Of a stretch of 64,000 nucleotides of DNA, positions 1-15,325 are shown one piece after another. The stretch comes from a virus. The DNA is taken from the IMG/VR virus record IMGVR_UViG_3300024333_000005, positions 1 through 64,000 of that record; one strand, given 5' to 3'. The position numbers and the translations under genes are program-made. The notes under the pieces were generated by a model. That model had not been told where the DNA came from, made no database searches, and saw only the letters and a program-made list of their open reading frames with translations. Each line of letters begins with the position of its first letter. The stretch's first letter is position 1.

Positions 1-2769
1 TGCCGCTGTACGGTGGACGTGGAGAAGGGGGCCCAGGTCAAGGCCCCCGGGATGCCGGCCAAGCCGGGGCCTCCGCCTCCGAAGCCGCCGCCCCCGAAGC
101 CGGCCCCTCCGCCCGCTGTACCCCCGAAGCCCCCGGCCGCGGCCAAGCCTCCGCCAGCGCCGAAGCCGGCCCCTCCGCCTCCGAAGCCAACCCCCCCTCC
201 CGGGGCCTTCCCCTGGGCGGAGAGCGAGCTGACGGCCGGCCCCCCGAAGACGAAGGGGGCGCACGAGGGGTACTTCTACCGCGCCCCCGACGGGAGCGAG
301 TGGCTGTTCAAGCCGGTGCCCGAGCAACTGGCGGTCTCGGAGCGGGTGGCTTGCCACGACCTCGCGGTCCGCCTTGGGCTCCCTGGCCCCGACGCCTATG
401 CCGTCCGCCTCCGGGGCAAGCCGGGGGTCGTGCAGCGGTTGTTCCCCGGGGTGAAGGGCGACCTCGAAGGGATGCCCTTCGAGCAGCTCACCGAGAGCGA
501 CACGGACACCATTCTTCGGGAGGCGGCCTACAACTGGCTCATCGGCGAGAACGACGGCCACGCCGGAAACTGGCTGCGGCTCGCGGACGGCCGCCTGGTC
601 GGGATCGACAAGGGGCAGGCGTTCAAGTTCTACAACGCCGACAAGCTGGACTGGGACTACCACCCGAACACTGGCTTCCACGGCGGGCAGTACGACCACC
701 TGCTCCTTCGGGCCTACGCCCAGGGCCAGGGGCCGGCCAGCATTGATCCGGCCCGGCTTCCCCAGCTTGCCGCCTTCCTGGACCGGGTCGAAGCTCTGCC
801 GGACGAGGAGTTCCTGGCCATCCTGCGGCCGATGGCGGTCGGGCTGCACGCCGCCTCGGCCGGCAAGCCCTTGCCCGGGGTCTTCGGGCAGAAGGTCGGG
901 TGGTCGGTCGACCAGTTCCTCGAAGAGGCCCTGCGCCGGAAGAAGGGCCTGCGCCGGGACTTCCTCGGCTACCTGGAGCGGGCACAGAAGGAGCGCAACA
1001 AGGCCCTGGGGGTCCAGGTCCCGGCAGCCGCAACCCGGCGGGCTCGGCAGGCCGCGGCCACCGTCGCCGAACCAGGGGTGGTCACGCCGCTCAACGCCGA
1101 GTGGGTGCGGAAGGCCAAAGCCTCGGGCTGGCGCGGCCGTACCATGTTCCTGGGAGGCCAGGACTGGGAAGACATGCAGGCGGTGGGCTACACCTTGGAG
1201 GACGGCACCTTCATCCTGGAGGGCAAGCTGCGAGAGGATGGCAACAGAAGGCTCGTTGACGCAATCCTCTCCCGCGGGATAGCCGCCTCCACGTCCGAAT
1301 CTGGCGGAGCCCTGACCCCCTCCGAGTTCCGACTCCAGGCGCTTGCGTTTGCAATCGCGAAGCACACGAACCACCACTTCGACCCGGCCAGCCTCGGCTA
1401 CGACCAGAAGATCAACCTGAACCACAAGGCCAACGCCACAGAGGCTTGGCGCCTCATCAGGCAGATGGCGAAGTCGTCCAACCCCGACGAGCGGGCGGCC
1501 GCCAAGCACTACGCCGACTATCTCGGCGGCCTGTTGCACTGGGATGCCGAGGGCAACCCGACTTGGAAGGAGAAGCCCAAGCTGGCGAGCGCCGGACACA
1601 AGCTGGTGTCCTGGGCCGACGCGCCCCAGCGGCACGGGCTGAAGGGCCCACCCACGACCTTCCGCGAGCGGCCGGTCAACACCCCCAGCCGCCGGTTCCG
1701 GCCAGACGGGCCGCCGCAGGCGACCGACGAGCCGCCCCTGGAGTGGGGCGGCAAGATGTACGAGGGGCACCTGGCCCCCGGGGTCCAGCTCCGCTACGTC
1801 CCCTGGTCCTCCCCGGGGGCGTTCGCCGGCCGCATCGAGCTGGTGCTGGACAAGGCGGAAGCGACCCCCGCAGGGATCGAGGCGGCCCTGGTCAAGCTGC
1901 GGGAGCTGGGCGTCGAGTGCCGCCTGGCGGACAAGAAGGACCTCCGGCTCCTGTACCTGCGCAAGACCACCCGGGCCGCGAAGCTGGAGGGCTACGTAGG
2001 CTTCAGCCCCAAGGAGGACCGGCCGGTAGACGAGCAGATCAAGGAACTCCACACCGCCTGGAGCCGGCGGCTGGGGCGGCCGCCCGAGCAGATGCCGGGC
2101 TACCAGGAAGCGCCGACCTGGGACCACGAGGAGTTCGACGGCCGGCCCCGGTGGCTGCGGTTTGACGTATCCGACGAAGACATCGCCGCCTACCAGGAGG
2201 AGGGCTACACCATCGCGCAGAGCATCAACGCCCTCTCTGGCGGCGGCCATTTGGACAACAAGATCGGACAGGGGCACCTGGAAGCCATACTGAGAAGCGA
2301 CTCGCTGCTGTCTTCCTGCGAGCGAATGCGAGTCGGCATCTACAATGCTGTCTCGCGGCAGGGCGAATCGGTGGACCGCGATGTCCCCTCCGGCGGCGCG
2401 GCCTACGTTTTCACCCGGCTGCGAAGGTGGCAAGGCCGCGGAGCCCCGCCCTTCGACCTGGAGTTCGACCTGCGGCTCTGGAGGGACTGCGACGCAATCC
2501 ACTACTCCGGCGATATGTTTGGTCAGACCGTAAGGGGGGCCACTTCGCGGCGGATAAATGGGAACTGGGAGGGGAGCGCGGGGGCCGCCAGGAGTTCGCC
2601 AGATAACGAGCTGGACTTCAAGAGCCGGGTCGGAATGCTGGCCTGGCTGCGGGCTGTTCATGTCCGCTCCAAAGAGAGCCGGGAAGCGGTGCTGGACCTC
2701 TTCCGAAAGCTCGGCATCAAGAGGGTCCGGGGCCGGCCGATAGAAGCGCTGGTGAAGGTCGGGGGCTAG
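1..2769 (+). CDS. 5'-truncated MuF/SPP1-gp7-like minor head protein with C-terminal effector domains (HipA/PI3K-like kinase; probable ART fold)
   Basis: The frame is open from nt 1 and reads CRCTVDVEK; CRC is the conserved end of the MuF HxxCRC motif. A Pro-rich linker (~50-205) follows, then kinase motifs WLFKP (301), DGHAGN (553) and IDKG (604). The C-terminus has ILRSDSLLS...GGAAYVFTR...DNELDF. Confidence 0.65.
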   Translation, partial: CRCTVDVEKGAQVKAPGMPAKPGPPPPKPPPPKPAPPPAVPPKPPAAAKPPPAPKPAPPPPKPTPPPGAFPWAESELTAGPPKTKGAHEGYFYRAPDGSEWLFKPVPEQLAVSERVACHDLAVRLGLPGPDAYAVRLRGKPGVVQRLFPGVKGDLEGMPFEQLTESDTDTILREAAYNWLIGENDGHAGNWLRLADGRLVGIDKGQAFKFYNADKLDWDYHPNTGFHGGQYDHLLLRAYAQGQGPASIDPARLPQLAAFLDRVEALPDEEFLAILRPMAVGLHAASAGKPLPGVFGQKVGWSVDQFLEEALRRKKGLRRDFLGYLERAQKERNKALGVQVPAAATRRARQAAATVAEPGVVTPLNAEWVRKAKASGWRGRTMFLGGQDWEDMQAVGYTLEDGTFILEGKLREDGNRRLVDAILSRGIAASTSESGGALTPSEFRLQALAFAIAKHTNHHFDPASLGYDQKINLNHKANATEAWRLIRQMAKSSNPDERAAAKHYADYLGGLLHWDAEGNPTWKEKPKLASAGHKLVSWADAPQRHGLKGPPTTFRERPVNTPSRRFRPDGPPQATDEPPLEWGGKMYEGHLAPGVQLRYVPWSSPGAFAGRIELVLDKAEATPAGIEAALVKLRELGVECRLADKKDLRLLYLRKTTRAAKLEGYVGFSPKEDRPVDEQIKELHTAWSRRLGRPPEQMPGYQEAPTWDHEEFDGRPRWLRFDVSDEDIAAYQEEGYTIAQSINALSGGGHLDNKIGQGHLEAILRSDSLLSSCERMRVGIYNAVSRQGESVDRDVPSGGAAYVFTRLRRWQGRGAPPFDLEFDLRLWRDCDAIHYSGDMFGQTVRGATSRRINGNWEGSAGAARSSPDNELDFKSRVGMLAWLRAVHVRSKESREAVLDLFRKLGIKRVRGRPIEALVKVGG

Positions 2770-3167: not shown

Positions 3168-3489
3168 CCTGGCCCTGTCCGAGATGCCGGGGGGCGGCCC
3201 TCCCTTCCGAGTGGTCGCAGTGCTGGCGGTGGACCCCCGCAACGGGGAGCACGCGGTGGCAACCGAGCTGGGGGCGGACGTGGTCCGGGCCAACATCGAG
3301 ACCCGAGTCATGGATGCCCGGAGAGCCGGCCGATCCCTGACCGACCTGCTCGACTACCTGGCCTCCCAGGGCAACCGCTACTTCCGCTCCTGGGAAACCC
3401 CGGAGAGCGTCCAGGCGCCGACCGTCGAGGCGGCAGCCGACCGGCTTCTCCTGTCCCTCCGCCCCGAGATGGAGGTCCCGCCCCTATGA
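3145..3489 (+). CDS. hypothetical protein (candidate immunity protein)
   Basis: ATG at 3145 with AGGAG 7 nt upstream, in frame with track ORF 3004..3489; its stop overlaps the queD start. Confidence 0.55.
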   Translation: MPVFVASSLALSEMPGGGPPFRVVAVLAVDPRNGEHAVATELGADVVRANIETRVMDARRAGRSLTDLLDYLASQGNRYFRSWETPESVQAPTVEAAADRLLLSLRPEMEVPPL

Positions 3490-3896
3490 GCACCATCGTC
3501 GTCGCCTGCGAACTGGAGTTCGACGCGGCTCATCGACTGCTCGGCCACCCGGGTCGGTGCGCTTCCCTGCACGGGCACCGCTACCGGGTCGAGGTCCGGG
3601 TGGCGGGCGGACCCGGCGAGGATGGCCTGGTGCTCGACTTCTCCGACCTCAAGGGCCGGCTGCGTGGCCTGCTCGACCCTTGGGACCATGCCACCCTGCT
3701 CCAGGAGGGCGACCCCCTGCTCCCGGTCCTGCGAGCTGACCCAACCTGCCGGGTGGTCGCCTGCCCCTGGCCCCCGACTGCGGAGCGGATGGCCGAGGCT
3801 GTCCACGGGAGCCTTGCCCGCTCCCTGCCGCCGGACCTGGCCGTCGCCGCGGTGACGGTCTGGGAGACCCCGACCAGCTCTGCCACCGCGGCATGA
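3486..3896 (+). CDS. queD: 6-carboxytetrahydropterin synthase
   Basis: Motifs FDAAHRL, CASLHGHRY, DH, PTAE and WETP. Confidence 0.95.
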   Translation: MSTIVVACELEFDAAHRLLGHPGRCASLHGHRYRVEVRVAGGPGEDGLVLDFSDLKGRLRGLLDPWDHATLLQEGDPLLPVLRADPTCRVVACPWPPTAERMAEAVHGSLARSLPPDLAVAAVTVWETPTSSATAA

Positions 3897-4561
3897 GCCG
3901 GGGCTACGCCGTCCACGAGGTCTTCGCCTCGCTCCAGGGCGAAGGTCTGCACACCGGCCGCCCCGCCCTGTTCGTCCGCTTCGCCGGCTGCAACCTGTGG
4001 TCCGGCCGGGAGCAGGACCGGGCCCGGGATGCCGAGCGCCATGAGGCGGCCTGCCCAGCCTGGTGCGACACCACCTTCCGGGGGCCGCCTGGCCGCCACG
4101 GTGGCCAGCTCTCTCTGGCCGCCCTGCTCCGGGCCTGCGAGCAGGAGGCCGACGGTGTCGCCTTCGTGGTCCTGACCGGCGGCGAGCCGCTGCTCCAGGC
4201 GGACGCCGAGCTGATCGGGGCCCTGCGCCGGCGGCTGGCGCTCCCCGTCCACGTCGAGACCAATGGGACCCTGCCCCTGCCCCCGGGGGCGAACCCGGAC
4301 TGGATCGCCCTCTCGCCGAAGACGCCGCCGGACCGGCTGGCCCTGCGGGTCTGCGACGAGCTGAAGGTGGTCTACCCCTCGCCGGTTCCCCCGGTGGCCT
4401 ATGCCCAGGCGCTCCGGGTCCTGGCCCGGGATGCCCTGCTCGTGCAGCCGCGGGCGGGACCCGACTTGCCGGCGGCCGTCGGGGCGTGCATCCTGTACGT
4501 CCGGGAGCACCCCGGCTGGCGGCTCGGGGTGCAGGCGCACAAGGTCCTCGGCTTGCCGTGA
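3893..4561 (+). CDS. queE: 7-carboxy-7-deazaguanine synthase (radical SAM)
   Basis: Motifs SLQGEG, VRFAGCNLWSGRE...C...CDT, TGGEPLLQ, ETNG, SPK and QAHK. Confidence 0.95.
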   Translation: MSRGYAVHEVFASLQGEGLHTGRPALFVRFAGCNLWSGREQDRARDAERHEAACPAWCDTTFRGPPGRHGGQLSLAALLRACEQEADGVAFVVLTGGEPLLQADAELIGALRRRLALPVHVETNGTLPLPPGANPDWIALSPKTPPDRLALRVCDELKVVYPSPVPPVAYAQALRVLARDALLVQPRAGPDLPAAVGACILYVREHPGWRLGVQAHKVLGLP

Positions 4562-5220
4562 CCCCCTTCGACCTCGACCGAGTCCGCTCCCACCTGGAGC
4601 GGGCCACCGCGGCTCTGGCCGTCCCCGGCGACCCCGAGCAGGCGCGGGTGGCTCTGTGGCAGGAGGCAGTAGCCCTCCAGCTCGCGCTGATGGGGGAGGA
4701 CCCGGGGCGGGAGGGCCTGCGGGACACCCCCGCCCGGGTGGTCCGCTACTGGCAGGAGGCCCTATCGGGCTACGCCGTCGACCCTGCCGCCATCCTGGCC
4801 CGGTCCTTCGAGGAGACCGAGGGCTACGACGAGCTGGTGCTGGTGCGGGACATCGCCTTCGACTCGACCTGCGAGCACCACCTGCTCCCGTTCCGCGGCA
4901 CGGCGGCGGTCGGGTACGTCCCCTCCCAGATGCCCCAGGGCCGGGTGCTCGGGCTGTCGAAGCTGGTCCGCCTGGTCCGCTGCTACTCCGCCCGGCTTCA
5001 GCTCCAAGAGCGCATGACCCGCCAGATCGCGGCCGCCCTCTGGGAGCACCTGCGCCCGCTGGGCGTCGGGGTGGTGATCCGGGCGGCGCACGGGTGCATG
5101 GAGTGCCGGGGAGTGCGGGCGAACGGGGCCAACGCGGTGACCTCGGCCATGATGGGGGTCTTCCGCCAGGACCCGTCTGCCCGGGCCGAGCTGCTCGCCC
5201 TCTGCGGGGCGGCCCCGTGA
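4558..5220 (+). CDS. folE: GTP cyclohydrolase I
   Basis: GTG start overlaps the queE stop; motifs REGLRDTPARV, CEHHLLPF, GLSKL, QER and HGCMECRG. Confidence 0.95.
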   Translation: MTPFDLDRVRSHLERATAALAVPGDPEQARVALWQEAVALQLALMGEDPGREGLRDTPARVVRYWQEALSGYAVDPAAILARSFEETEGYDELVLVRDIAFDSTCEHHLLPFRGTAAVGYVPSQMPQGRVLGLSKLVRLVRCYSARLQLQERMTRQIAAALWEHLRPLGVGVVIRAAHGCMECRGVRANGANAVTSAMMGVFRQDPSARAELLALCGAAP

Positions 5221-5717
5221 CCTGGTTCTGGGCCGGCCTCTACCTGGCTGCGGCGGTGGCCGCGAACCTGGCGGTGGCGGCCTGGGGCCCGGCCGCCACC
5301 CTCCCGGCGGCAGCCCTCTGCATCGGGTGCGACCTCACCGCCCGGGATGCCCTGCACGAGCGCTGGGAAGGGCCGGGCCTGGTCGGGCGCCTGGGCGCCC
5401 TGATTGCCGCGGGGTCTGCGCTGACCTACCTCGCCTCCCCGGCTGCGGGCCGGGTGGCCCTGGCCTCTCTCCTGGCCTTCGCCGTCTCGGCCACGGTGGA
5501 CTCGCTCGCCTACGGCGCTCTGCGCCAGCACATTCCTCTGGTGCGGGTCAACGGGTCCAACCTGGCTTCGGCTCTCGCGGACTCCCTGGTCTTCCCCACG
5601 GTGGCCTTCGGTGCCCTGCTCCCCTGGGTGATCCTCGGGCAGTTCGTCGCCAAGGTGGCGGGCGGCGCCCTCTGGTCGCCCCTGGTAGTGGCCCTGCGCC
5701 GGCGGAGGGCAGCGTGA
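5217..5717 (+). CDS. yhhQ: VUT/YhhQ-family preQ0/preQ1 transporter
   Basis: Multi-TM protein with AN, DLTARD, RVALAS, SN...DSLVF..VAF and GQFVAK motifs, located inside the que cluster. Confidence 0.8.
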   Translation: MTWFWAGLYLAAAVAANLAVAAWGPAATLPAAALCIGCDLTARDALHERWEGPGLVGRLGALIAAGSALTYLASPAAGRVALASLLAFAVSATVDSLAYGALRQHIPLVRVNGSNLASALADSLVFPTVAFGALLPWVILGQFVAKVAGGALWSPLVVALRRRRAA

Positions 5718-6406
5718 CCCCGATGCCGGCAGTGGTGCTGCTCTCCGGCGGGCAGGACTCGACCACCTGCCTGTACTGGGCCCGGGAGCGCTTCTCCCCG
5801 GTCGCGGCTCTGGCGGTCAACTACGGCCAGCGGCACGTGGCCGAGCTGTTGGCGGCCCGGGCGGTGGCCGAGCTGGCCGGCGCCTCCTTCCGCCTCCTGA
5901 CCCTGGAGGCCCTGACGCAACTCGGGGGCTCGGCTCTGCTCCCGGGTGGCGGCGAGCTGCGGGAAGCGGGCGGCCTGGTCGACGCCGAGGCCCCGGCCGG
6001 GCTCCCAACCTCCTACGTCCCCGGCCGCAACCTGCTCCTGCTCGGGCTTGCCGGGGCCTACGCGGCCAGTCTGGGAGTCCGGGACCTGGTGTGTGGGGCG
6101 AGCCAGGCGGACTACTCGGGCTACCCCGACTGCCGGCGCCCGTTCATGGATGCGATGGAAGCGGCCCTGACCCTGGCCCTCCCGACCACCTGCGGCCCCC
6201 TCCGCGTCCACGCTCCCTTGATGAACTGCACGAAGGCCGACACGGTGCGCCTGGCCTGGGCCCTTCCCGGGTGCTGGGAGGCGCTGGCCCTGACCGTGAC
6301 CTGCTACCGGGGCCTGCGGCCGGGCTGCGGCGTCTGCCCGTCCTGCCGGCTGCGGGCCCGGGGCTTCGCCGAGGCCGGTCGGCCCGACCCTGCGGCAGGG
6401 GCCTGA
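5714..6406 (+). CDS. queC: 7-cyano-7-deazaguanine synthase
   Basis: Motifs SGGQDS, YGQRH, VPGRN, YPDC and CY...CGVCPSC..R; the start is either 5714 (GTG) or 5723 (ATG). Confidence 0.95.
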   Translation: MTPMPAVVLLSGGQDSTTCLYWARERFSPVAALAVNYGQRHVAELLAARAVAELAGASFRLLTLEALTQLGGSALLPGGGELREAGGLVDAEAPAGLPTSYVPGRNLLLLGLAGAYAASLGVRDLVCGASQADYSGYPDCRRPFMDAMEAALTLALPTTCGPLRVHAPLMNCTKADTVRLAWALPGCWEALALTVTCYRGLRPGCGVCPSCRLRARGFAEAGRPDPAAGA

Positions 6407-6407
6407 C

Positions 6408-9400
6408 GTGCCCAAGGTCCGCACCACCCTCTTCTACGTCACCCTCCCCTGGGGCACGCCGCTCCTGAAGCGGATGCGCATCGAGAACGTCATGGTCAGC
6501 TTCCGCCACTTCGGGCGGAAGCTGCCAGAGTTCCCCCGGCTCATCGTCGACTCGGGGGCCTACTCGGACGCCAAGCTGCGCAAGGGCGAAGGTGAGGGGA
6601 AGGGCCGGGAGAAGGAGGACCGGAGCGGCAAGGGGTACGCCCGCTACCTCGACGAGTCGCCGGCCGAGCGGAGCGTGGTCTTCCGCGTCATGATGGACAA
6701 GATCGGGGACCAGCCGGCGACCTGCCGCCGCTTCGACCGGCACCTGGCCAAGGGGCACTCCTGCGCCTTCGTCTACTACTCCGACGCCCGGGTGACGCCG
6801 GCGGTGGAGGCGGCCCTCAAGCGCTCCCTGACGGCCGCCGGCGCAGCGTGCTTCGCCGGCATCACCACCGGCTACCTGATCGCCCGCAAGATCGGGATGA
6901 ATGAGGTCTTCCGGGGCCTGGAGCGGTGGTGGGGGGCGGTGGAGAAGGTCCTGGGCAAGGGCCCCCGTCCCCGGACCCACCTGCTCGGTTCCTTCCGCAT
7001 CCCGGTGCTGTCCCGCTTCCCCTTCACCTCGGCCGACATCTCCTCGCACTTCCTGGCCAACCGCTACGGCCGCTTCTGCACCTACCTCCGGGACGAGCGG
7101 GGCCTGCGGGTCTCGGGCATTCCCCACCACCAGGCGAAGAACGTTGAGGGCCGGCTCTCGCCGGCCATGCGTAGGCTCCAGGAGGCCAGCTACGCCTCGG
7201 CCCGCAAGCTGGGGCTCGACCTCGACGTGGAGGACGACCGCTACTGTTGGAACATCCGGGCCTACAAGCTGCTGGAGGCGGCCCTGGCCCGGGGCGACGT
7301 GGAGAAGGCCGATGCCGGGCTCCTGCTCGACACCCCGGGCCTGACCCCCTGGGCGGAGGGGGCGGTGGCGCCTCCTTCCTCGGTGGCCTACGACTTCGGC
7401 TTCTCCCCGGGGGAGCTGGCCGACCTCGGCAAGACCGAGGACGAGCATGACGGAGAGCGGGAGGGAGCCGAGGACCCGGGGGACGAGTGGGCGGCCGACG
7501 ACGAGGCCGAGGACCAGGGCGAGGACTCGGCCGAGGCGACGGCGAAGGACGCCATCACCACCGACGCCCTGGCAACTGGCGGCCGCAAGGCCCCCGAGCA
7601 GGGCGGTCCTCCGCCCCGGCGCCGCCGGCGCCGGCAGGAGGAAGAGGAGAAGGCGGCGCCCCCGACCGGAGTGCTGCCGGCGCTCAAGATGCCGGACCCG
7701 GCCTTTCTGCTCGACCGCCTGGAGGCGGGCGAGTCGGCGGGCATCCTCTCCCGCCGGGCGCAGGCGGAGCGGGTGGGCGAGCCCGAGTTCCTGGTCAACG
7801 AGGTCGCGCCGCTCGGCTTCGACCGGGCCTTCGTCTGGGCGGTGGTAAAGCACGGAGCGGCCGAGGCGGTCGCCGACCTGTCCGCGCTGGACCCGCTGCG
7901 CCGGGCCGGGGTAGACGCTCTCGCCCGCCAGGAGTTCGCCGGGGAGCGGGACTTCTTCTACCTGCCCCTGGAGCTGGTCGAGCGCTACGAGGCGCCCCTG
8001 CCCCTCAAGCGCCCGCCGGCGGGCCGGCGCTTCGGGGCCGAGGTGGACCTGGAGCGGGACGTGGCAAAGGCCGCGGTCCCTTCCCTGCCCCCCGCCGGCG
8101 ACGACCCGCCCGAGGCCGAGGCAGACGACGAGGGCGAAGGTGAGGTTGGCAAGCGGGTCCGCCAGCCGTTCGGAGCGCCAGCCGGCAAGTCGGCGGTGGC
8201 CGGCCGGGTGGCCGCGGGGCTCCCCCGCCACCGGACCTACGTGGAGCCCTTCGCCGGCGGGGCCGCGGTCCTGTTCGCCAAGGCCCCTTCGTCGTCGGTG
8301 CGGGAGGTCCTGGCGGACCTGGACCCCGAGGTCGTCGGCGCCTTCTCCTTTCTCCAGCGGGCGACCTCCCGGGACCTGGACGATCTGCGGGCACGGGACT
8401 GGCGCTCGACCCCCGAACAGCTCCGGCAGGCGGTGGCCCTGCAACCCCGCTCCGACGCCGAGCGCTTCTGGCGGCTCGCGATGCGCCGGTACTCGGGCTG
8501 GCGAGCGGCGAGCGGCGGCTACAACCCCGCCCGGCAAGGGCGGGTCTCGACCTTGCCCGGCCGCCTGGAAGAGGTCCAGCGGCGCCTCGCCGGGGTGGTG
8601 CTGCGGCGCCAGGACTGGCGGGAGACCCTGCGGGAGTTCGACGCCCCCGACTCGTTCTTCTACCTCGACCCGCCCTGGCCCTCCCGCAAGGGGGCAGCGC
8701 CCGAGGGCCTGGAGCCGGCCACTCTGGCGGCCGCTCTGGCGACCCTCAAGGGCACCTTCCTTCTGCACTACGACCCGGCCCACGCCGACGCCTTCCGCCG
8801 GGAGGGGTGGGGGCTGCGGGAGGCCGATGGGCTTCTGGAGGTCACGAACGCCCCGGACCGGGTGGGCAAGGCCGCGGCCGAGCCCACGCCCGGGGAGCTG
8901 GCGGCGGAGTGCCGCGGACTCCTCCGCAAGCTGGCCCAGGACGCCCCAGGACGCACGGAAGCGGTCTGCCGGCTGGGGGAGCCCGGCCCGGACGATCTCG
9001 CGGCCCTGCGGGCCGCTCCGGGCCGCCTGCAAGCCGCGGCCGAGGCGCTGGCCGCGGTGGAGCTGGTGACCCCCGAGCCCTCCCCCGGCCCGGGCGACCC
9101 GGCCGCCCGTCTGGCCGCCCTCCTTCCCCGGCTGTTCCCGGCCCTGGAGGGGGCGGACGAGCTGCACAAGGCCCTGGAGGGTGGGCATGAGGCGGCCGCC
9201 CTGCTCGCCCGCCTGGGCGGGTTCTCCGGCACTGGCGACGGTGGTAGCGCCAGGCTTTGCCCCGCGTGCCTCGCTGCCCCTGCCCCGGAGGCTACCTGCC
9301 GGGTGGTGAAGGTGCTGATCGCCGGGGTGGGCTCCGTGCCTCCCGAACGGCTCGACGCCGAGAGGCTGCGGGACCTCTCCGATGGCCAGCTCCGGGAGGC

Positions 9401-12400
9401 CGACGCTTCCCTCCACGGGCTCTACGACCGGGCCTTCGGCGAGGGCGGGAAGGGCGGCGAGAACCGGGAGGTCCTGGTCAACGCCCACCTGTTCGTGCTC
9501 GCCGAGCTGCGCCGGCGGCGCCTGGCCCACGAGGGGGACCAGGGCGACCCCCTGGACGCGGCGACTCTGGCCCTGGCGCCCGACGCCTATCGGGGGACGG
9601 CGAAGGCTGCCGGACCCGCGTCAGACCGTACCACCGCCGCAGTCTACCCCGGCGGGCAGGAGGACTTCGGGAGCGAGATCGCCCTCTCCGAAGTGCTCCC
9701 CTACGCCCAGGACATCGTGCTCCGGGCGCCGGCCGTCTACGTGGTGGGCGGCCTGGCGGTCCACGGCCGCACCCGGGGCGACCTCGACCTCCTGGTGCGG
9801 GGGCCGCTCGACGAGGCCACCCGGCGGGTGGTCGAGTTCCGCCTGGGCCGGATGCTGCCGCCCGACCTCTCCCAGCGGGTGCAGTTCCTCGACGACGAGC
9901 TGGGCGGCCCCTTCACCGACCACGTCGAGCTGTACGACCTGGTGCTGCGCCGGCGGGAGGACCTGGGGGTCAAGCGGATGCGGCTGGAGAAGGCCGACGA
10001 CCCCCTGCTCGACCTGCCGCCCCGAGGGAGCCAGAAGCGGTCCTCCGCGTTGCAGTACCACTTCCGGGGCCGCTCCCTGCACGCCGACCTCCGCTTCAAG
10101 GTGGCCGACGACTACCTGGTGGGCTGGACTCTGGCCCTCCAGCGGGAGGGCCGGACCCCCGACGTGAACTCGGTCGCCGAGGCCAAGCAGATCGCGGCCA
10201 CCTTCTCCCCGGAGGGGAGCCGCTACTCCAAGCCCTTCCTCGCCCCGGCCCGACTCTGGGCTACCCCCAAGGCCCGGCAGCCGGTGGCGTGGCTGAACAT
10301 CGAGGCGGAGACCTTCGCCCCCGGCTCGGTCGGGGCGACCCGCTTCGAGGAAGGCACCATCGTCCTGGTCGACCGGCCCCGGGTCGAATGGGGGCTCCAG
10401 AAGCCCTACAGCCACGAGTACTTCCTGACCGGCAAGGGGCCGCTCGTCGGCATCCTCTTCTTCCGCCTGCTCGTCGGCGAAGGCGAGGGGGACGAGACGC
10501 CGGCTCGGACCCCGGAGGGCGAAGCCTTCTGGACCTGCACCCTGACCCGCAGCCTGCTCCCCGGGGTGCTCAAGCCGCGGGCGGTGGAGACCGGCGACGT
10601 GCCGCCCCAGCACTACTCCGGCCTGCCGGCGACCCTGGCCGAAGTGGTGCCGTCCTCCTTCCGCTACTGGGAGGCGGCGACGCCCCGGGAGCGGCGGGAG
10701 GTGCGGGACGCCCTGGTCGGCGAGCGGTTCTTCACCGAGGCCGGCATCCGGCTGGTCGACGGCGAGTTCCGCCGAGTGGTGCAGAAGCTCTACGTCTACA
10801 CGCCCCAGGCGGCCGACCTGGCCAAGGGGCCGCCGGTGGTCGACTTCGCCCTCTCCCGCCAGACCTGGCAGGGGCAGACCGTGATCCGGGGGGTGCCCTC
10901 CCGCACCGTCTGGCACCTGGTCCTCGATGGGCCGGGCGAGGGGCTGCGGGGCTGGGAGCTGCAAGCCGACCCGCTGGAGGAAGGGGAGCGAGTCGCGGCC
11001 CTGGCCCACGACCACCCGGAGAAGGAGCTGCTGCACTTCGAGGGCGAGGTCAAGCCGGGTGCCCGAATCGGGGGCGAGGTCCTGAACCCCACCCGGGCGA
11101 CGCCCTCCGACGTGGCCCTGCTCGACCGGGGCAAGGCCACCATCCTCGACGACGTGCCCGGCCGGCTGCGGGTCCGCTTCGCCGGTCGCAAGCTGCACGG
11201 CGCCTGGACCCTGGTTCAGGAAGAGGAGCGCTCGCCGGTCTGGACCCTGGGCCGGGGCGAGCTGCCCGGTCGCCGCCAGGCCGAGAAGGAGGCCGGCGAG
11301 GGGGCAGAGGACGGCCGCGGCCGCGGCGACCTGGAGAAGCGCACCGGCAGCCGAGGCCCCTACCCGCACGACGAGTGCATGTTCCCCCGCTGCTCCAAGG
11401 CCCCCGAGGTCGAAGTGGTCTGGGCCGACGGCCGCGGCCGGGCCTGGTTCTGCAAGGAGCACCTCGCCCGCTGGCGGGACCGGGGGGAGCCCGACGGCGA
11501 CCCGCCTGGCGACCGGGAGATCATCCGGGAGCGGGAGGTCGAGGGGGGCCGGGTCGGCCCCCGCTACGGGGCGCCCCCGCTGGCCAAGGCCATCCCCCTC
11601 CGAGATGGCGTCCAGGTCTGGGACCCCGACCGGCGGGACCCCGAAGCCGACCGTACCCAGCTCCGGCCCCTGGCCCTGTTCCGCCCGCAGAAGCCGGCGC
11701 CCCGGCCGACCAACGAGTTCCGCGACCCGGAGGATGCCCTGGCCTTCGCCACGCCCGCGGCCCTGCGGGACGGCATCCTGGTCGAACCCAAGTGGAACGG
11801 CTTCCGGGTAGTGGCCGAGAAGGCCGGCGGCCGAGTCCTGATCTTCACCGAGGACACCCAGCGGGACATCTCCCCGGCCCTGCCCGGGGTCACCCGGGAG
11901 CTGGCCGGGCTGCGGGGCGACTACGTGCTCGACGCCGAGCTGATGGCCTTCGACGGCGAGAGCCCCGTTCCCCGCCGGGAGCTGGCCCGCTTCCGGGGCG
12001 AGCGGCCGACCGACGACGCCCAGGCCGCGCTCTGCGTCCACGACGCCCTTTACCTCCCCGGGCCGGGGAACCTGACGGCGAAGACCAACGCCGAGCGGCG
12101 GGCGGCCCTGGAGGCGTACCTGCCCGCTCGGGCGAAGCACCTGCGCCTCTCCCCGGCCCGGCTGGTCCACCGGGAGGCGGCCCTGCGGGAGGCCCTGCGC
12201 TGGGCCTCCCATCTCCCCGGCTCCGAGGGGGCCATGCTCAAGCTCGCCGGCTCCACCTACAGCCTGGGCGGCGAGAACGACGGCTGGGCGAAGTTGAAGC
12301 TGGTGCGGGAGGTCCTGGCCATCGTCTACCGGCTGGAGCCGGTCGAGGGCTCTCCTGGCGTCCACACCCTCTACTGCGCCGTCGGCCCCATCCCCCCCGA

Positions 12401-13088
12401 CGAGCGGGACCGCTGGCGGGAGGTGGTCGAAGTCGCCGGGAAGCTGGCCACGCCCATCGGCCGGACCTTCAACACGAAGGCGGACGTTGAGGTCGGCAGC
12501 GTGGTTCGGGTGGAGGTCACCGAGCTGCTGTCCGACCAGCGGCCGGAGGCCAAGCGGTCCCTCACCTGGTTCACCCCGACGGTGGTGGAGGGCCCGGTCG
12601 AGCGGCGGCCCATGACCCCCGCCGAGGCCGAGGCCCTTCTCCTCCCCGGCGAGGTCAAGAAGCTCCTGGCCGAGGCCGCAGTGGCGAAGGACCTGGAGGT
12701 GATCGCCAAGGCCGGCGACGGCGAGCACTACGCGCTGGGGGTGGTGCTGGAGCCGACCGACGAGGCGGCCGGGCTCAAGCCCGACGCCCAGCATGACGTG
12801 TACTCGGCCGAGGAAGTCCAGCGGGCGGCCCACTACTTCATGGAGGCCGGCGGCCGGATCGGCTTCATGCACCGGGAGATCATCGGGGACAAGGCCCGGG
12901 TGCTGGAGACCTACCTCGCTCCGGTCACCTTCGAGCTGCCCCTTCCCGGCGGCGGAGTGCGGCGCATCCGGGAGGGAACCTGGCTGCTCGCCCTCCGGGT
13001 CCTTGACGCCGACCTCTGGCAGGCTGTAAGGTCGCGGAAGTTCGCCGGCCTGTCGGTCGGCGGCACGGCGCGCCGGGAGGCCGCTTGA
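6408..13088 (+). CDS. 2226-aa multidomain polyprotein: DpdA/TGT-like + possible ASCH-like + Dam-like MTase + nucleotidyltransferase + 2x LigD-PE-like + Zn-finger + ATP-dependent ligase + XkdF-like prohead protease
   Basis: A single open frame with DSGAYS (6549), EPFAGG/DPPW (8667), GGL..GDLDLL (9777), QYH..HADLR (10053), EPKWNG (11784)/EGAMLK/WAKLK, and GVVLEP..DAQHD..MH..GTW..GLSVGG (12711-13088). Confidence 0.85.
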   Translation: MPKVRTTLFYVTLPWGTPLLKRMRIENVMVSFRHFGRKLPEFPRLIVDSGAYSDAKLRKGEGEGKGREKEDRSGKGYARYLDESPAERSVVFRVMMDKIGDQPATCRRFDRHLAKGHSCAFVYYSDARVTPAVEAALKRSLTAAGAACFAGITTGYLIARKIGMNEVFRGLERWWGAVEKVLGKGPRPRTHLLGSFRIPVLSRFPFTSADISSHFLANRYGRFCTYLRDERGLRVSGIPHHQAKNVEGRLSPAMRRLQEASYASARKLGLDLDVEDDRYCWNIRAYKLLEAALARGDVEKADAGLLLDTPGLTPWAEGAVAPPSSVAYDFGFSPGELADLGKTEDEHDGEREGAEDPGDEWAADDEAEDQGEDSAEATAKDAITTDALATGGRKAPEQGGPPPRRRRRRQEEEEKAAPPTGVLPALKMPDPAFLLDRLEAGESAGILSRRAQAERVGEPEFLVNEVAPLGFDRAFVWAVVKHGAAEAVADLSALDPLRRAGVDALARQEFAGERDFFYLPLELVERYEAPLPLKRPPAGRRFGAEVDLERDVAKAAVPSLPPAGDDPPEAEADDEGEGEVGKRVRQPFGAPAGKSAVAGRVAAGLPRHRTYVEPFAGGAAVLFAKAPSSSVREVLADLDPEVVGAFSFLQRATSRDLDDLRARDWRSTPEQLRQAVALQPRSDAERFWRLAMRRYSGWRAASGGYNPARQGRVSTLPGRLEEVQRRLAGVVLRRQDWRETLREFDAPDSFFYLDPPWPSRKGAAPEGLEPATLAAALATLKGTFLLHYDPAHADAFRREGWGLREADGLLEVTNAPDRVGKAAAEPTPGELAAECRGLLRKLAQDAPGRTEAVCRLGEPGPDDLAALRAAPGRLQAAAEALAAVELVTPEPSPGPGDPAARLAALLPRLFPALEGADELHKALEGGHEAAALLARLGGFSGTGDGGSARLCPACLAAPAPEATCRVVKVLIAGVGSVPPERLDAERLRDLSDGQLREADASLHGLYDRAFGEGGKGGENREVLVNAHLFVLAELRRRRLAHEGDQGDPLDAATLALAPDAYRGTAKAAGPASDRTTAAVYPGGQEDFGSEIALSEVLPYAQDIVLRAPAVYVVGGLAVHGRTRGDLDLLVRGPLDEATRRVVEFRLGRMLPPDLSQRVQFLDDELGGPFTDHVELYDLVLRRREDLGVKRMRLEKADDPLLDLPPRGSQKRSSALQYHFRGRSLHADLRFKVADDYLVGWTLALQREGRTPDVNSVAEAKQIAATFSPEGSRYSKPFLAPARLWATPKARQPVAWLNIEAETFAPGSVGATRFEEGTIVLVDRPRVEWGLQKPYSHEYFLTGKGPLVGILFFRLLVGEGEGDETPARTPEGEAFWTCTLTRSLLPGVLKPRAVETGDVPPQHYSGLPATLAEVVPSSFRYWEAATPRERREVRDALVGERFFTEAGIRLVDGEFRRVVQKLYVYTPQAADLAKGPPVVDFALSRQTWQGQTVIRGVPSRTVWHLVLDGPGEGLRGWELQADPLEEGERVAALAHDHPEKELLHFEGEVKPGARIGGEVLNPTRATPSDVALLDRGKATILDDVPGRLRVRFAGRKLHGAWTLVQEEERSPVWTLGRGELPGRRQAEKEAGEGAEDGRGRGDLEKRTGSRGPYPHDECMFPRCSKAPEVEVVWADGRGRAWFCKEHLARWRDRGEPDGDPPGDREIIREREVEGGRVGPRYGAPPLAKAIPLRDGVQVWDPDRRDPEADRTQLRPLALFRPQKPAPRPTNEFRDPEDALAFATPAALRDGILVEPKWNGFRVVAEKAGGRVLIFTEDTQRDISPALPGVTRELAGLRGDYVLDAELMAFDGESPVPRRELARFRGERPTDDAQAALCVHDALYLPGPGNLTAKTNAERRAALEAYLPARAKHLRLSPARLVHREAALREALRWASHLPGSEGAMLKLAGSTYSLGGENDGWAKLKLVREVLAIVYRLEPVEGSPGVHTLYCAVGPIPPDERDRWREVVEVAGKLATPIGRTFNTKADVEVGSVVRVEVTELLSDQRPEAKRSLTWFTPTVVEGPVERRPMTPAEAEALLLPGEVKKLLAEAAVAKDLEVIAKAGDGEHYALGVVLEPTDEAAGLKPDAQHDVYSAEEVQRAAHYFMEAGGRIGFMHREIIGDKARVLETYLAPVTFELPLPGGGVRRIREGTWLLALRVLDADLWQAVRSRKFAGLSVGGTARREAA
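8935..8961 (+). repeat. dispersed 27-bp repeat, copy 1
   Basis: CCCAGGACGCCCCAGGACGCACGGAAG. Confidence 0.85.
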
Positions 13089-14104
13089 GTGGACCTGCGA
13101 AGGACGACGACGACCTCTACCGCCTGCGGGACCTCAAGGTGGAGGAGGTCAGCATCGTCGACCGCCCGGCCAACCGCATCGAGTGGCTCATCGTCAAGCG
13201 AGACGGGGAGGACCCCATGAGCGCAGGCCCCGAGGTCCGCGAAGGCGCGGACGGGAAGCTCACGGTCGCCAAGGCCGACCCGGCCAAGCCGGAGGACGAG
13301 GCGGCGAAGGCCAAGGTTCCGCCCGAGGACGAGGCGGCGAAGGCGAAGGCTCCGAAGCCCGAGGACGCCGAGAAGGCCGGCGGCCGGCTGGAGGCCGGTG
13401 CCCGGGAGGCGGCCGAGCGGCTGCTCTCCCTGGCCAACCAGGCCAAGGGCAAGGCCCCCGACGCGGCGATGCTCCGGGAGCTGAAGGCGGTCTCGGGCCT
13501 GCTCACCGGGCTCGCCGACAAGTACCCCTCGCCGAAGGCCGGCGTGGCGAAGGCGGAGGCCGACCTGATCGCCGAGGGTCGGACCTTCGACGGGGTGCTG
13601 CACACCGCGGCCCAGGCCATCCTCGGCGGGTCCCGGGAGCAGGCGGCCGCGGCGGTCGCCGGCGTCCGGGCCGCCATCGACTACGCGGTCGGGAAGGCCG
13701 CGAAGGTCGAGGACGAGGAGCCGGAGGACGAGGCGAAGGCGAAGGCCGCGAAGCCGAAGGACCTCCCCGGGGCCGGCAAGCGGTTCACCGCCGAGCGGGT
13801 CGGCAAGCTGACCTCGGCGCTCGGCTCGCTGCTCGACGTGCTCAAGGACCTGGGCGTCACCAACCTCCCCGCCCTGCTCAACGTGGCGAAGAGCGACGGC
13901 ACGGCGGAGGGCGAGGTGATCGCCAAGGCCCTGTCCGCGGTGGGCGTCGACGCCGAGGCGGCCCGGGCCGCCGAGGCCGACGGCAAGCTCGCCGACCTCC
14001 AGAAGCGGCTCGACCGCCTGGAGACGGCGGGCCTGGCGAAGGGCCTGGGCGGCGACGCGGTCGCCAAGGCCGTGAAGCCGGACCTCTGGAAGGGGATCGT
14101 CTAG
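13085..14104 (+). CDS. capsid scaffold protein with N-terminal protease fragment
   Basis: N-terminal EVSIVDRPAN motif of HK97-type proteases, then an Ala/Lys-rich helical body and C-terminal LWKGIV. It lies just upstream of the capsid gene and has a second in-frame ATG with RBS at 13217. Confidence 0.75.
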   Translation: MSGPAKDDDDLYRLRDLKVEEVSIVDRPANRIEWLIVKRDGEDPMSAGPEVREGADGKLTVAKADPAKPEDEAAKAKVPPEDEAAKAKAPKPEDAEKAGGRLEAGAREAAERLLSLANQAKGKAPDAAMLRELKAVSGLLTGLADKYPSPKAGVAKAEADLIAEGRTFDGVLHTAAQAILGGSREQAAAAVAGVRAAIDYAVGKAAKVEDEEPEDEAKAKAAKPKDLPGAGKRFTAERVGKLTSALGSLLDVLKDLGVTNLPALLNVAKSDGTAEGEVIAKALSAVGVDAEAARAAEADGKLADLQKRLDRLETAGLAKGLGGDAVAKAVKPDLWKGIV

Positions 14105-14137
14105 CGCCGCCGAGCGGCGCCCGTGGAGGGCTGCACC

Positions 14138-15325
14138 GTGACCAACGAAGAGCTGCTTCGCAAGGCCGTCATCACCACGGACGCCCTGGCGGCGGCCGGC
14201 AAGCTGAACCCCGAGCAGGCGGACAAGTTCATCGACTTCGTCCTGGACGAGACCGCCCTCAAGGGTTCGGTCAGGACCATCAGGGTCAAGACCGACTGGG
14301 AGATCAACAAGATCGGGGTCGGCGCCCGGGTCGCGATGCCCGCGGCCGAGGCCAAGGACCCCGGCCTCCGGCGCGGCATCACCACCTCCAAGGTGACGCT
14401 CAACGCCAAGGAGGTGATCGTCCCGTTCGAGATCGGGGACTCCTTCCTGGAGGAGAACATCGAGGGCGAGCCGAGCGCCGAGCACATCGTCCGCCTCATG
14501 GCGACGAAGGCGGCGAACGAGCTGGAGGAGCTGGGAATCCTGGGCGACGCCCTGGGCGTGGCGGCCCTGGAGTCCGACCTCATCGAGGGCGGCGACGCGG
14601 TCCGGCACGTCCGGGACTCCTACCTCGCCCTCTTCGACGGGTACGCCCGGCTCGCCGACGGCGGCAGCATCTTCAACGCCGCCGGGGCCAACATCGGGCT
14701 CTCGATCTTCGGCGGCATGCTCCGGGCCATGCCGACCAAGTTCCGCAAGGACCCCCGGCGCCTGCGCTACCTGGTGAGCCCCGACCTGGAGCAGCTCTGG
14801 CGGGAGCGGGTCAGCACCCGCGGCACCGCCCTGGGCGACCAGGCGGTGCAGGGCGACTCCCGGATCAAGGCGTTCGGGGTCGAGATGGTGCCCCTGCCGC
14901 TGCTCCCCTTCCGGCCCCGGGTGGTCGAGCACGTGGTCCTGAACGGTCTGGTCGCCGCCACCCTGCGGTACCAGAACCTCGCGAACGCCGTCGTCCACCT
15001 GGCGACCCTGGGGAACGTCCCGACCGCCCCCTACACCGCCGGCGTCGACTACACCCTCGACGCGGCGGCGGGGACCATCGTCCGCATCGGCGGCGGCGGC
15101 ATCGCCGACGGGGCGACGGTCAAGGTCACCTACGACTCGCCCCCCATCGCCATCCTGACCCACTTCGAGAACCTGCTCCTGGCCATCGGGCGGGACATCC
15201 GCATCGAGAAGGACCGGGACATCTTCCGGCGGGTCAACCAGTACGCCATCACCATCAAGGTCGGGGTCGGGGTCGAGGAGGCGGCGGCCATCGTGAAGGC
15301 CCGCAACCTCGGCACCGGCATCTAG
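14138..15325 (+). CDS. major capsid protein (HK97 fold, XkdG-like)
   Basis: GKLNPEQADKFID, EENIEG, DIRIEKDRDI and EAAAIVK patterns; GGAGG 8 nt before the GTG at 14138. Confidence 0.88.
   Translation: MTNEELLRKAVITTDALAAAGKLNPEQADKFIDFVLDETALKGSVRTIRVKTDWEINKIGVGARVAMPAAEAKDPGLRRGITTSKVTLNAKEVIVPFEIGDSFLEENIEGEPSAEHIVRLMATKAANELEELGILGDALGVAALESDLIEGGDAVRHVRDSYLALFDGYARLADGGSIFNAAGANIGLSIFGGMLRAMPTKFRKDPRRLRYLVSPDLEQLWRERVSTRGTALGDQAVQGDSRIKAFGVEMVPLPLLPFRPRVVEHVVLNGLVAATLRYQNLANAVVHLATLGNVPTAPYTAGVDYTLDAAAGTIVRIGGGGIADGATVKVTYDSPPIAILTHFENLLLAIGRDIRIEKDRDIFRRVNQYAITIKVGVGVEEAAAIVKARNLGTGI

Follow-up and report, generated by a model that had tools for sequence, protein, structure and literature searches.

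A prohead-protease polyprotein carrying a predicted 7-deazaguanine DNA transglycosylase and a putative DNA end-repair set in the head module of a lake-water phage

Why should a phage join DNA-modifying and DNA-repair enzymes in one chain with the protease that matures its head? The question is raised by a single open reading frame (ORF) of 2226 codons, here called the polyprotein, in a window of 64,000 nucleotides (nt) that makes up positions 1 to 64,000 of the IMG/VR virus record IMGVR_UViG_3300024333_000005, a contig of 85,241 bp that is 82% complete according to CheckV. The frame has at least seven distinct domains (Table 1), the first resembling DpdA, the DNA preQ0 insertase, and the last being a prohead protease of the XkdF type. 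The timing and place of 7-deazaguanine insertion in phages are known only as "post-replicative". We think it probable that this cargo-bearing polyprotein enters the procapsid with its protease, is cut there at lysines between its domains, and leaves its DNA-modifying and repair enzymes with the genome; the packaging, the cleavage and the ejection are what we infer.

The first matter is whether so long a frame is real. The G+C content of the window is about 74%, so that long open frames are common by chance and openness alone is weak proof; spurious frames of 1128 and 1083 codons are found on the opposite strand of this very stretch. The chance that the polyprotein is likewise an accident of GC-rich DNA, or a misassembly fusing separate genes, nonetheless appears negligible. 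In the phase of the polyprotein, the G+C content at third codon positions (GC3) is 0.89-0.99 in each of the 300-nt bins between 6501 and 13100, and the GC3 phase shifts exactly at both flanking genes. We also compared contigs from four of 16 lake-water metagenome runs. The record itself may come from some of these runs, which are therefore not all independent. Positions 6300-13200 are spanned by contigs X2 (13,986 nt), X3 (21,917 nt) and X4 (40,736 nt), from three run assemblies, each with no differing letter and no gap, while the fourth run covers the polyprotein region piecewise, again with no difference. Short contig joints, whose sides of 20-21 letters came from other contigs, were set aside as noise. 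The cluster of the polyprotein holds three sequence variants, all of 2226 amino acids (aa), on 4 + 9 + 1 = 14 contigs, and dozens of diverged homologues keep the architecture. An earlier note on this DNA, made from its letters, had read one 2226-codon frame in the protease slot and had allowed that it might be an assembly artefact. No stop or frameshift splits the frame in the contigs of the runs compared, and the polyprotein is confirmed as a real gene along its whole length. A megablast search with the ORF against phage records gave no match.

What makes the polyprotein a candidate for entry into the head is its C-terminus. The XkdF family of Pfam (PF14550) matches residues 2097-2224 of 2226 with 65.6 bits, against a cut-off of 24, and is covered from model position 3 to 125 of 126; His2155 and Ser2216 are invariant in 22 of 22 sequences, and the XkdF-like protease that had been placed at 12711-13088 is borne out. 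In a scan of the whole record, PF14550 was found in one place, inside the polyprotein, and neither PF04586 (S78) nor PF00574 (ClpP) had a match, which leaves this domain as the only prohead-protease candidate in the record.

The gene after the polyprotein encodes a scaffold-like protein, and one conserved N-terminal peptide opens all 28 distinct downstream scaffolds. Complex prediction for the protease domain and this peptide, with alignments as input, gave a score of 0.81 (runs 0.81, 0.84 and 0.81) against 0.01 for the best of three controls; the mark applied to such scores is reached by 58 of 80 solved complexes and by 2 of 110 mismatched pairs. The runs share at least 84% of their contacts, with a partner pLDDT of at least 56, and the predicted contacts join peptide residues 9-37 to the strands bearing His2155 and Ser2216. 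No solved structure similar in sequence to the protease was found. The model supports binding of the scaffold N-terminal peptide to the protease domain, which would provide a loading route.

A protease of the same PF14550 family, EM_079, occupies the same slot in Pseudomonas phage EM (TerL, portal, protease, scaffold-like, decoration, major capsid protein (MCP)), and the gene after it starts with a diverged form of the docking motif. The EM protease stands alone, with 178 aa and no cargo, whereas in the lake phage about 2090 residues of enzymes precede the protease. We rejected the idea that the scaffold peptide is the missing strand of a split protease, as the XkdF model is matched almost from end to end within the polyprotein and phage EM has the same two-gene layout; together these point to a normal XkdF arrangement, in which the peptide may complete the fold or occupy the active-site cleft, rather than to a peculiarity of the lake phage.

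At the opposite end of the chain, an exhaustive HMMER search of 1.84 billion representatives returned six relatives of the N-terminal domain at E<=0.001, while a single-sequence phmmer search of residues 1-400 against the PDB gave nothing useful. Only three phage-database records match the domain, and each has the annotation queuosine tRNA-ribosyltransferase, which phage DpdA genes usually receive. An AlphaFold model built from a five-sequence alignment (pTM 0.74) has top Foldseek matches that all belong to the TGT superfamily (Cap10, QTRT1, bacterial TGT and ArcTGT; probability 1.00), with DpdA (7UI4) at rank 12, and the VIA structure search gives Z values of 16-17 over 250-270 aligned residues. 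In a PDB profile search the top match is 7UI4 itself, a weak one (E 0.052) that aligns both catalytic-Asp motifs. Among 19 distinct relatives, some fused and some stand-alone, D48, D97, H191 and D210 never vary. The active-site residues of the S. Montevideo DpdA are Asp95, Asp130 and Asp256, according to the available text of PMC10164549; D48 and D210 align with two motif Asp residues of 7UI4 that lie 161 residues apart, the spacing of Asp95 and Asp256, and we infer that D97 is the counterpart of Asp130. Fold, profile match and the three invariant Asp residues agree with the earlier reading of a DpdA/TGT-like domain at ~6408-7300, and this domain is the only TGT-like sequence in the genome record.

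A TGT-like fold does not by itself name the substrate. The domain might act on tRNA, or it might attach a 7-deazaguanine to a protein in the way of Cap10, a TGT-like enzyme of type IV CBASS: its best Foldseek match (2.5e-6) is to the Cap10 chain of a Cap10-CdnD complex that bears an NDG modification, tRNA TGTs rank highest by VIA, and the structural Zn site of DpdA and TGT was not found in residues 1-341, where the only Cys residues (106, 119, 148, 224 and 280) form no cluster. We give a non-DNA substrate a very slight chance, however, as the best PDB sequence-profile match is to DpdA and all three matching phage-database records bear the annotation just mentioned. Distant stand-alone TGT-like relatives in viral contigs also lie in preQ0-type clusters, adjoining QueF/QueC/FolE or QueD/QueE/FolE/Gat-QueC, and the presence of FolE, QueD, QueE, QueC and YhhQ beside the TGT-like gene is the phage DNA-modification signature described in the available texts of PMC6884629 and PMC10516641. 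The modelled fold and the alignments support the prediction that the N-terminal domain is a DpdA-type 7-deazaguanine DNA transglycosylase. Residues 84-167 of the TGT-like domain are also matched in 16 separate stretches (E 8.9e-15) of an odd repeat protein of 4133 aa, P0024, in which no Pfam family was found.

Between the two ends lie further enzyme domains, of which the methylase and the ligase are plain Pfam matches. PF02086 covers residues 593-760 with 30.3 bits (cut-off 22), where the earlier note had a Dam-like methyltransferase at ~8154-8860, and PF01068 covers the adenylation domain of the ATP-dependent ligase, residues 1788-1964, with 63.7 bits (cut-off 26.2), the ligase having been placed at ~11590-12650. 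The motif I lysine of the ligase, K1795, is kept in 13 of 15 sequences, and its part from residue 1965 to 2094 is conserved in the family. ATP-dependent ligases have a motif I of the form K-x-D-G; here (11790-11804, aa 1795-1799) it reads K-W-N-G-F-R, and the Asn is invariant across the family alignment.

The two LigD-phosphoesterase-like domains that had been claimed at ~10040-11260 both hold, the first (PE1) by its fold and the second (PE2) by its profile. The seven best Foldseek matches to an AF2 model of PE1 (pLDDT 91) are all LigD 3'-phosphoesterase (PE) structures, followed by a sharp drop, and in the VIA search, which is independent of Foldseek, two of 48,161 chains reach Z 5, both of them LigD PE. 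The match to 3P4H has Z 13.4 and a root-mean-square deviation of 2.0 with 117 of 118 residues aligned, that to 3N9B has Z 11.3, and the next match has Z 3.8. Since the PE1 profile found no LigD match in the PDB, and Atlas no usable match, the identity of PE1 is drawn from its structure. LigD PE domains carry a metal-binding His/His/Asp plus Arg motif on their first strands; PE1 keeps an invariant Q-x-H-x-R-G-x3-H-x-D-x-R, a candidate counterpart. Read by eye, PE2 is without the His-x6-His-x-Asp-x-Arg pattern of PE1 and has H-D-H-P ... F-E-G-E. The two PE-type domains may share out the labour, or one of them may be inactive. Aligned with each other by hhalign, PE1 and PE2 gave no significant match (E 0.13, probability 0.45). 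At E<=0.001, none of 29 polyproteins was matched by the Pfam model of the LigD PE domain, and single-sequence phmmer of residues 983-1640 against the PDB yielded nothing useful.

The remaining domains fared less evenly. For the Pol-beta-type nucleotidyltransferase (NTase) proposed at ~9700-9980, an invariant G...D-x-D motif (G48, D59 and D61 in the numbering of the domain alignment) speaks in favor, but the profile evidence is weak: 13 of 14 matches to PDB profiles are Pol X chains at E 0.13-1.4, the best being ASFV Pol X at E 0.13, and Pfam NTP_transf_2 appears in one of 24 members, at E 0.2 in a search at E<=1. A Pol-beta NTase is a plausible identity for residues 1067-1195. The possible ASCH-like domain at ~7670-8060 gained no support. 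A conserved domain of 140 aa, designated d415, is indeed present there, but PDB profiles assign nothing to it, Pfam at E<=1 matches none of 23 members, and the Atlas leads all fall under the 0.9 line, an ASCH/PUA-like one with 0.86 at rank 26 among them. The C/C/C/H finger at ~11375-11465, on the other hand, was read correctly, its ligands being conserved in all aligned sequences. The Pfam search found no family in the finger region or in the middle region of the polyprotein.

The polyprotein lies between preQ0 genes and genes of the head. Gene calling based on GC3, together with PHROG and Pfam scans, gives the order TerL, portal, 918-aa ORF, QueD-QueE-FolE-YhhQ-QueC, polyprotein, scaffold, MCP, head decoration, adaptor, tail sheath, tape measure, from which it follows that the phage is a myophage and that the polyprotein occupies the canonical protease slot. 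From QueD to QueC, each gene overlaps the next by 4 nt, and the polyprotein begins 1 nt after the QueC stop at 6406. At its other end, the TTG start of the scaffold-like gene at 13085 overlaps the polyprotein stop (TTGA), with GGGAGG 7 nt upstream. Translational coupling links the polyprotein with the genes of a complete preQ0 pathway before it and with those of scaffold and capsid after it. We considered a programmed frameshift that would fuse the polyprotein to the scaffold but rejected it, as related loci separate the two genes by variable gaps or overlaps.

A large protein collection contains 18 relatives of the polyprotein, 1307-2373 aa long, all with XkdF and ligase and with a variable set of extra Pfam domains (D12 or C5 methylase, UDG, LAGLIDADG, 2H). 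Mapped by BLAST against these relatives, the polyprotein has a constant core from residue ~983 to 2225, the d415 module and a variable N-terminal part, its first 390 residues being shared with none of the 18. A scan of IMG/VR with a single core sequence found nothing, and an alignment query was required; with it, 80 loci of uncultured phages were recovered, whose flanks were examined up to 10 kb, limited by contig ends. An XkdF domain was detected at the end of the PE-bearing ORF in 48 of the 80; next come scaffold and MCP in 35 of these, only MCP in 12 and neither gene in one. A Pfam census of 29 diverse polyproteins counted ligase in 26, XkdF in 21, D12 methyltransferase in 11, metallo-beta-lactamase (MBL) in three, PNK 3'-phosphatase in two, and pyrimidine-dimer glycosylase, 2H and intein/LAGLIDADG in one each. 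Homologous protease fusions with variable cargo, which the earlier note had thought worth seeking, do exist in other phages, and judged by these domain assignments the cargo of the family has a theme of DNA end healing and repair.

The fusion of DpdA to the protease recurs as well, in four further distinct polyproteins and three small proteins. The profile of the TGT-like domain matches the polyproteins of loci L038/L040, L055, L066 and L069, which are exactly the five of the 80 loci with Que genes upstream. The small proteins (P0021-P0023, 543-793 aa) are the three closest relatives of the N-terminal domain, and each consists of a TGT-like part and a C-terminal XkdF; the metagenome and genome scans found no relative that would give them a genomic context.

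If the enzymes are to be released, there should be places to cut. The motif [AEG]K[ADG] occurs 20 times in the polyprotein against 6.8 +/- 2.5 expected (none of 2000 shuffles reached 20), its sites coincide with breaks between homology blocks, and several junction lysines are conserved in the relatives (K554 in 11 of 14, K1195 in 23 of 28, K1727 in 14 of 15 and K2101 in 21 of 22). The scaffold is crowded with the same lysine motif, and all MCPs have a conserved x-x-K↓A close to the N-terminus. Such conservation suggests that the junction lysines are sites of self-processing. It could also be argued that the chain is incorporated yet stays largely uncut, or is cut in part, and is ejected whole as a giant internal head protein in the manner of the N4 virion RNA polymerase (vRNAP). 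Unprocessed packaging of polyvalent proteins, with N4 vRNAP as the example, is described in the available text of PMC5512222, and the cut sites in the present case are themselves candidates. We see a slim chance for this, given that the junction lysines are conserved within otherwise variable linkers, that the catalytic His and Ser of the protease never vary among the sequences aligned, and that the same motif is repeated many times in the scaffold.

Residues 375-398 of the polyprotein copy residues 9-32 of the MCP (14147-14218), with an acidic tract before the copy and a Pro3-Arg6-Gln-Glu4 tract after it; the copy directly follows a putative cut site. Several other loci hold such copies of their own MCP N-terminus, L028 with z 5.6 and L043, L083, L070 and L036 with z 3.0-3.5, while most loci have none. 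The copied peptide could be a shared recognition element of the protease or a mimic that binds capsid or scaffold.

Taken together, a route into the head can be proposed. By docking on the peptide conserved at the N-terminus of the scaffold, the C-terminal protease would bring the whole chain into the procapsid during assembly. Once activated, the protease would cut after Lys in h-x-K↓(A/Q/S/G/D), at each of the domain junctions, throughout the scaffold and near the MCP N-terminus, which would free folded enzymes too large to escape the shell. These enzymes would remain with the DNA, where DpdA, using preQ0 from the co-expressed Que enzymes, and Dam would mark the genome at or after packaging, and the PE/NTase/ligase set would heal and seal nicked or broken DNA, be it within the head or in the next host once the enzymes have been ejected along with the genome. 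The repair core would be the constant cargo of the family, with DpdA and Dam as exchangeable add-ons. The earlier note had already suggested that the protease acts as a handle for capsid loading and that the cargo is freed in the head. That reading has partial, computational support: the domain is the sole prohead-protease candidate of the record and sits in the slot of EM's stand-alone XkdF, the scaffold peptide present in 28 of 28 is predicted to dock beside the protease His and Ser, and the junction lysines are conserved and share their motif with the scaffold.

The most serious competitor is that the polyprotein is a device of expression only, serving late, equimolar and high-level synthesis, with cleavage in cis in the cytoplasm, enzymes whose substrate is replicated or concatemeric DNA not yet packaged, and a small protease domain that alone enters the procapsid. 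We regard this as unlikely but worth keeping in mind. Prohead proteases are generally kept inactive until assembly, which does not fit cleavage in the cytoplasm, the fusion to XkdF is retained by 48 loci as well as by the three small proteins that join TGT to XkdF, and the polyprotein carries the copy of the MCP N-terminal peptide. The protease, moreover, always comes after its cargo in the chain, which is how polyvalent proteins are described in the available text of PMC5512222. The Que enzymes, on the other hand, are cytoplasmic by necessity and belong to the same coupled operon, and an NTase-PE-ligase module without protease exists in ANMV-1 and several IMG/VR loci. The DpdA papers likewise treat phage 7-deazaguanine insertion as post-replicative, with the words "protease", "capsid" and "packag" absent from the available texts of PMC6884629 and PMC10516641.

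Along with the missing Zn site, several observations weigh against cargo delivery through the head. Two junction lysines are moderately conserved at best (K1473 in 12 of 25 and K1066 in 10 of 18), the motif is enriched to at least 1.5 times expectation in only seven of 18 relatives and lies below expectation in three, and many catalytic or structural lysines away from the junctions are equally conserved, so that the junction sites are to be taken as candidate cut sites. The docking score may reflect a fold-level memory of HK97-type proteases in the prediction model rather than a tether. Many copies of a 2226-aa chain (~240 kDa) would fill much of the head volume, a DpdA acting in the shell needs preQ0 diffusing in, and bacterial DpdA depends on the DpdB ATPase, according to the available text of PMC10164549. 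With the record 82% complete, a further protease or DpdA may also be encoded elsewhere.

A bolder version of the proposed route makes the capsid a reaction chamber. DpdA, first tethered and then freed, would swap guanine for preQ0 during packaging, so that only encapsidated DNA would be marked and replication templates would stay unmodified, while the co-loaded 3'-phosphoesterase, NTase and ligase would heal abasic or nicked by-products, as well as environmental damage, in the head or on ejection. We consider this distinctly unlikely; if true, it would be the first case in which cargo of a maturation protease modifies and repairs DNA enzymatically within a phage head or after delivery from one.

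The general design is not without precedent. Polyvalent proteins with a C-terminal assemblin-like peptidase were published in 2017 by Iyer, Burroughs, Anand, de Souza and Aravind (PMC5512222), who, in the available text, predicted that they are processed and packaged. The lake-phage polyprotein resembles them in being a multidomain protein of nucleic-acid enzymes encoded among head genes, with several enzymes in one chain and the peptidase at the extreme C-terminus. The kind is thus already known, and it is the cargo that appears to be new. The available main text of PMC5512222 contains no TGT, LigD or XkdF, and "ligase" occurs three times, for RNA ligases in the passage shown; nor does it describe a cargo of DpdA, two LigD-PE domains, ATP-dependent DNA ligase and NTase, a preQ0 operon coupled to such a chain, a code of junction lysines or a docking peptide on the scaffold. 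DpdA or LigD-type cargo on a prohead protease was found in no paper searched, including PMC5512222, PMC6884629, PMC10516641, PMC7824862, PMC10164549 and 10.1101/2025.02.15.638363, in the available main texts (supplements apart), and a literature search that paired XkdF with cleavage or with cargo brought up no experiments. The statement in the earlier note that no 7-deazaguanine insertase fused to a head protease had been described therefore holds for the papers searched, with the provisos that the design is in print and that the fusion recurs in other phages.

Published phage DpdAs (Hutinet et al. 2019, PMC6884629; 2023 NAR, PMC10516641) and bacterial DpdA (7UI4, PMC10164549) share with the present domain the TGT fold, the three invariant Asp residues and the FolE/QueD/QueE/QueC/YhhQ neighbours, as far as the available texts go. 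In those texts they are separate proteins encoded among replication or modification genes, whereas here the DpdA-like domain is the N-terminus of a head-protease polyprotein and the Que operon lies within the head module. Bacterial LigD and the archaeal stand-alone 3'-phosphoesterases (3N9B, 3P43, 3P4H, 5DMP) likewise offer a PE fold with an ATP-dependent ligase and a nucleotidyltransferase as a set for end healing and sealing. Unlike LigD, the lake-phage protein has two PE-type domains in tandem and is fused to a capsid protease, and its putative polymerase is a Pol-beta-like domain of ~130 aa, whereas that of LigD is a primase-polymerase. The virus ANMV-1 has an 866-aa "ATP-dependent DNA ligase" (KP703175, AJP62006.1) that matches residues 1068-1618 with 32.7% identity (4e-38) and shares the NTase/PE block, but it is free-standing, with no protease domain, and does not adjoin scaffold or capsid genes. 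Phage proteins of anti-restriction and early function that are packaged in the virion, as reviewed in the available text of PMC5512222, include P1 DarB, T4 Alt and N4 vRNAP. The proposed cargo would be like these in that they are head-borne enzymes acting on or with the incoming DNA, and it differs in that none of them joins a maturation protease to an enzyme for DNA base exchange or end repair. DarB, Alt and N4 vRNAP are loaded by other routes, namely the Dar system, MuF and a capsid-targeting peptide.

If DpdA is a physical component of the machinery that matures the head, as it appears to be in several phage lineages that have diverged from one another, its place there points to modification at the time of packaging or later, which is directly testable. 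Given the conserved phosphoesterase/NTase/ligase core, the virions of many uncultured phages may contain enzymes for the repair of DNA ends, which, if true, would be a strategy of counter-defence or genome maintenance not established for phages. Should the docking peptide between protease and scaffold and the lysine junction code be confirmed, they would offer a simple and generally applicable means of bringing any enzyme into a capsid, which would also be useful in practice when phages or capsids are engineered to deliver cargo.

Table 1. Features of the polyprotein and its surroundings, in positions of the record, the first 64,000 of which form the window.
Feature	Position	Strand	Evidence or remark
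Polyprotein ORF, 2226 aa, GTG start, stop included	6408..13088	+	GC3, contigs, cluster variants
TGT/DpdA-like TIM-barrel domain, aa 1-300, D48/D97/D210 invariant	6408..7307	+	Fold search, profile, alignment
Copy of MCP N-terminal peptide, aa 375-398, right after Lys380	7530..7601	+	Score 58 vs 31 +/- 3.8, 0/500 shuffles
Conserved family domain d415, aa 415-555, between Lys415 and Lys554	7650..8072	+	Conserved in most relatives
D12-class N6-adenine DNA methyltransferase, aa 580-821	8145..8870	+	Pfam PF02086 4.4e-7; phrog_56 3.3e-22
Variable middle region, aa 822-1066	8871..9605	+	Partly shared in family
Small Pol-beta-type NTase-like domain, aa 1067-1195	9606..9992	+	Invariant G-x-...-D-x-D; weak
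LigD-type 3'-phosphoesterase domain 1 (PE1), aa 1196-1473: PE fold aa 1210-1380 plus helical extension	9993..10826	+	
LigD-type phosphoesterase-like domain 2 (PE2), aa 1474-1640	10827..11327	+	Profile vs PDB: 3P43 8.8e-6, 3P4H 6.9e-5
Cys3-His finger region (C1657, C1662, C1682, H1685) and linker to Lys1727	11340..11588	+	Ligands kept in 7/7 aligned sequences
ATP-dependent DNA ligase, aa 1728-2094	11589..12689	+	Pfam PF01068 2.5e-17
XkdF-type (Peptidase_S78_2) prohead protease domain, aa 2095-2226	12690..13085	+	Pfam PF14550 5.5e-18
Scaffold-like protein, many x-A-K↓A motifs	13085..14104	+	
Conserved scaffold N-terminal peptide, scaffold aa 9-37	13109..13195	+	Predicted docking on protease
Major capsid protein	14123..15325	+	phrog_1623 2.1e-67
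918-aa ORF, coding-like GC3	13-2769	+	Between portal and preQ0 genes; may run off contig start
QueD (6-pyruvoyl-tetrahydropterin synthase family)	3486..3896	+	Pfam PTPS 5.5e-29, phrog_2389
QueE-like radical SAM enzyme	3893..4561	+	phrog_2076 3e-23, Pfam Radical_SAM 1.9e-7
FolE, GTP cyclohydrolase I	4558..5220	+	Pfam PF01227 8.5e-64
YhhQ/Vut_1-like transporter (preQ0 uptake family)	5217..5717	+	Pfam Vut_1 2e-13
QueC (preQ0 synthase family)	5714..6406	+	Pfam QueC 2.1e-62
Terminase large subunit (TerL)	81033-82457		
Portal	82485-84212		

Some smaller points concern the neighbourhood and the family. The 918-aa ORF had no PHROG match, and its match to the HipA_C kinase family was sub-threshold (E 0.0017). 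Two or three copies of the D12 methylase are present in some polyproteins (P0003, L017, L044). Locus L049 has a stand-alone TGT-like ORF of 361 aa (1751-2833, + strand), ~5 kb upstream of a polyprotein without a TGT-like domain, which looks like a split counterpart of the fusion; a Pfam search of this ORF and of the N-terminal parts of L069, L066, L038 and L055 found no family. The more distant loci L062-L094 have a permuted order, NTase-Lig-PE1-PE1-PE2, often without a protease detectable by single-sequence search. In ANMV-1 the module is free-standing, and evidently the repair module passes back and forth between a form fused to the protease and a free one.

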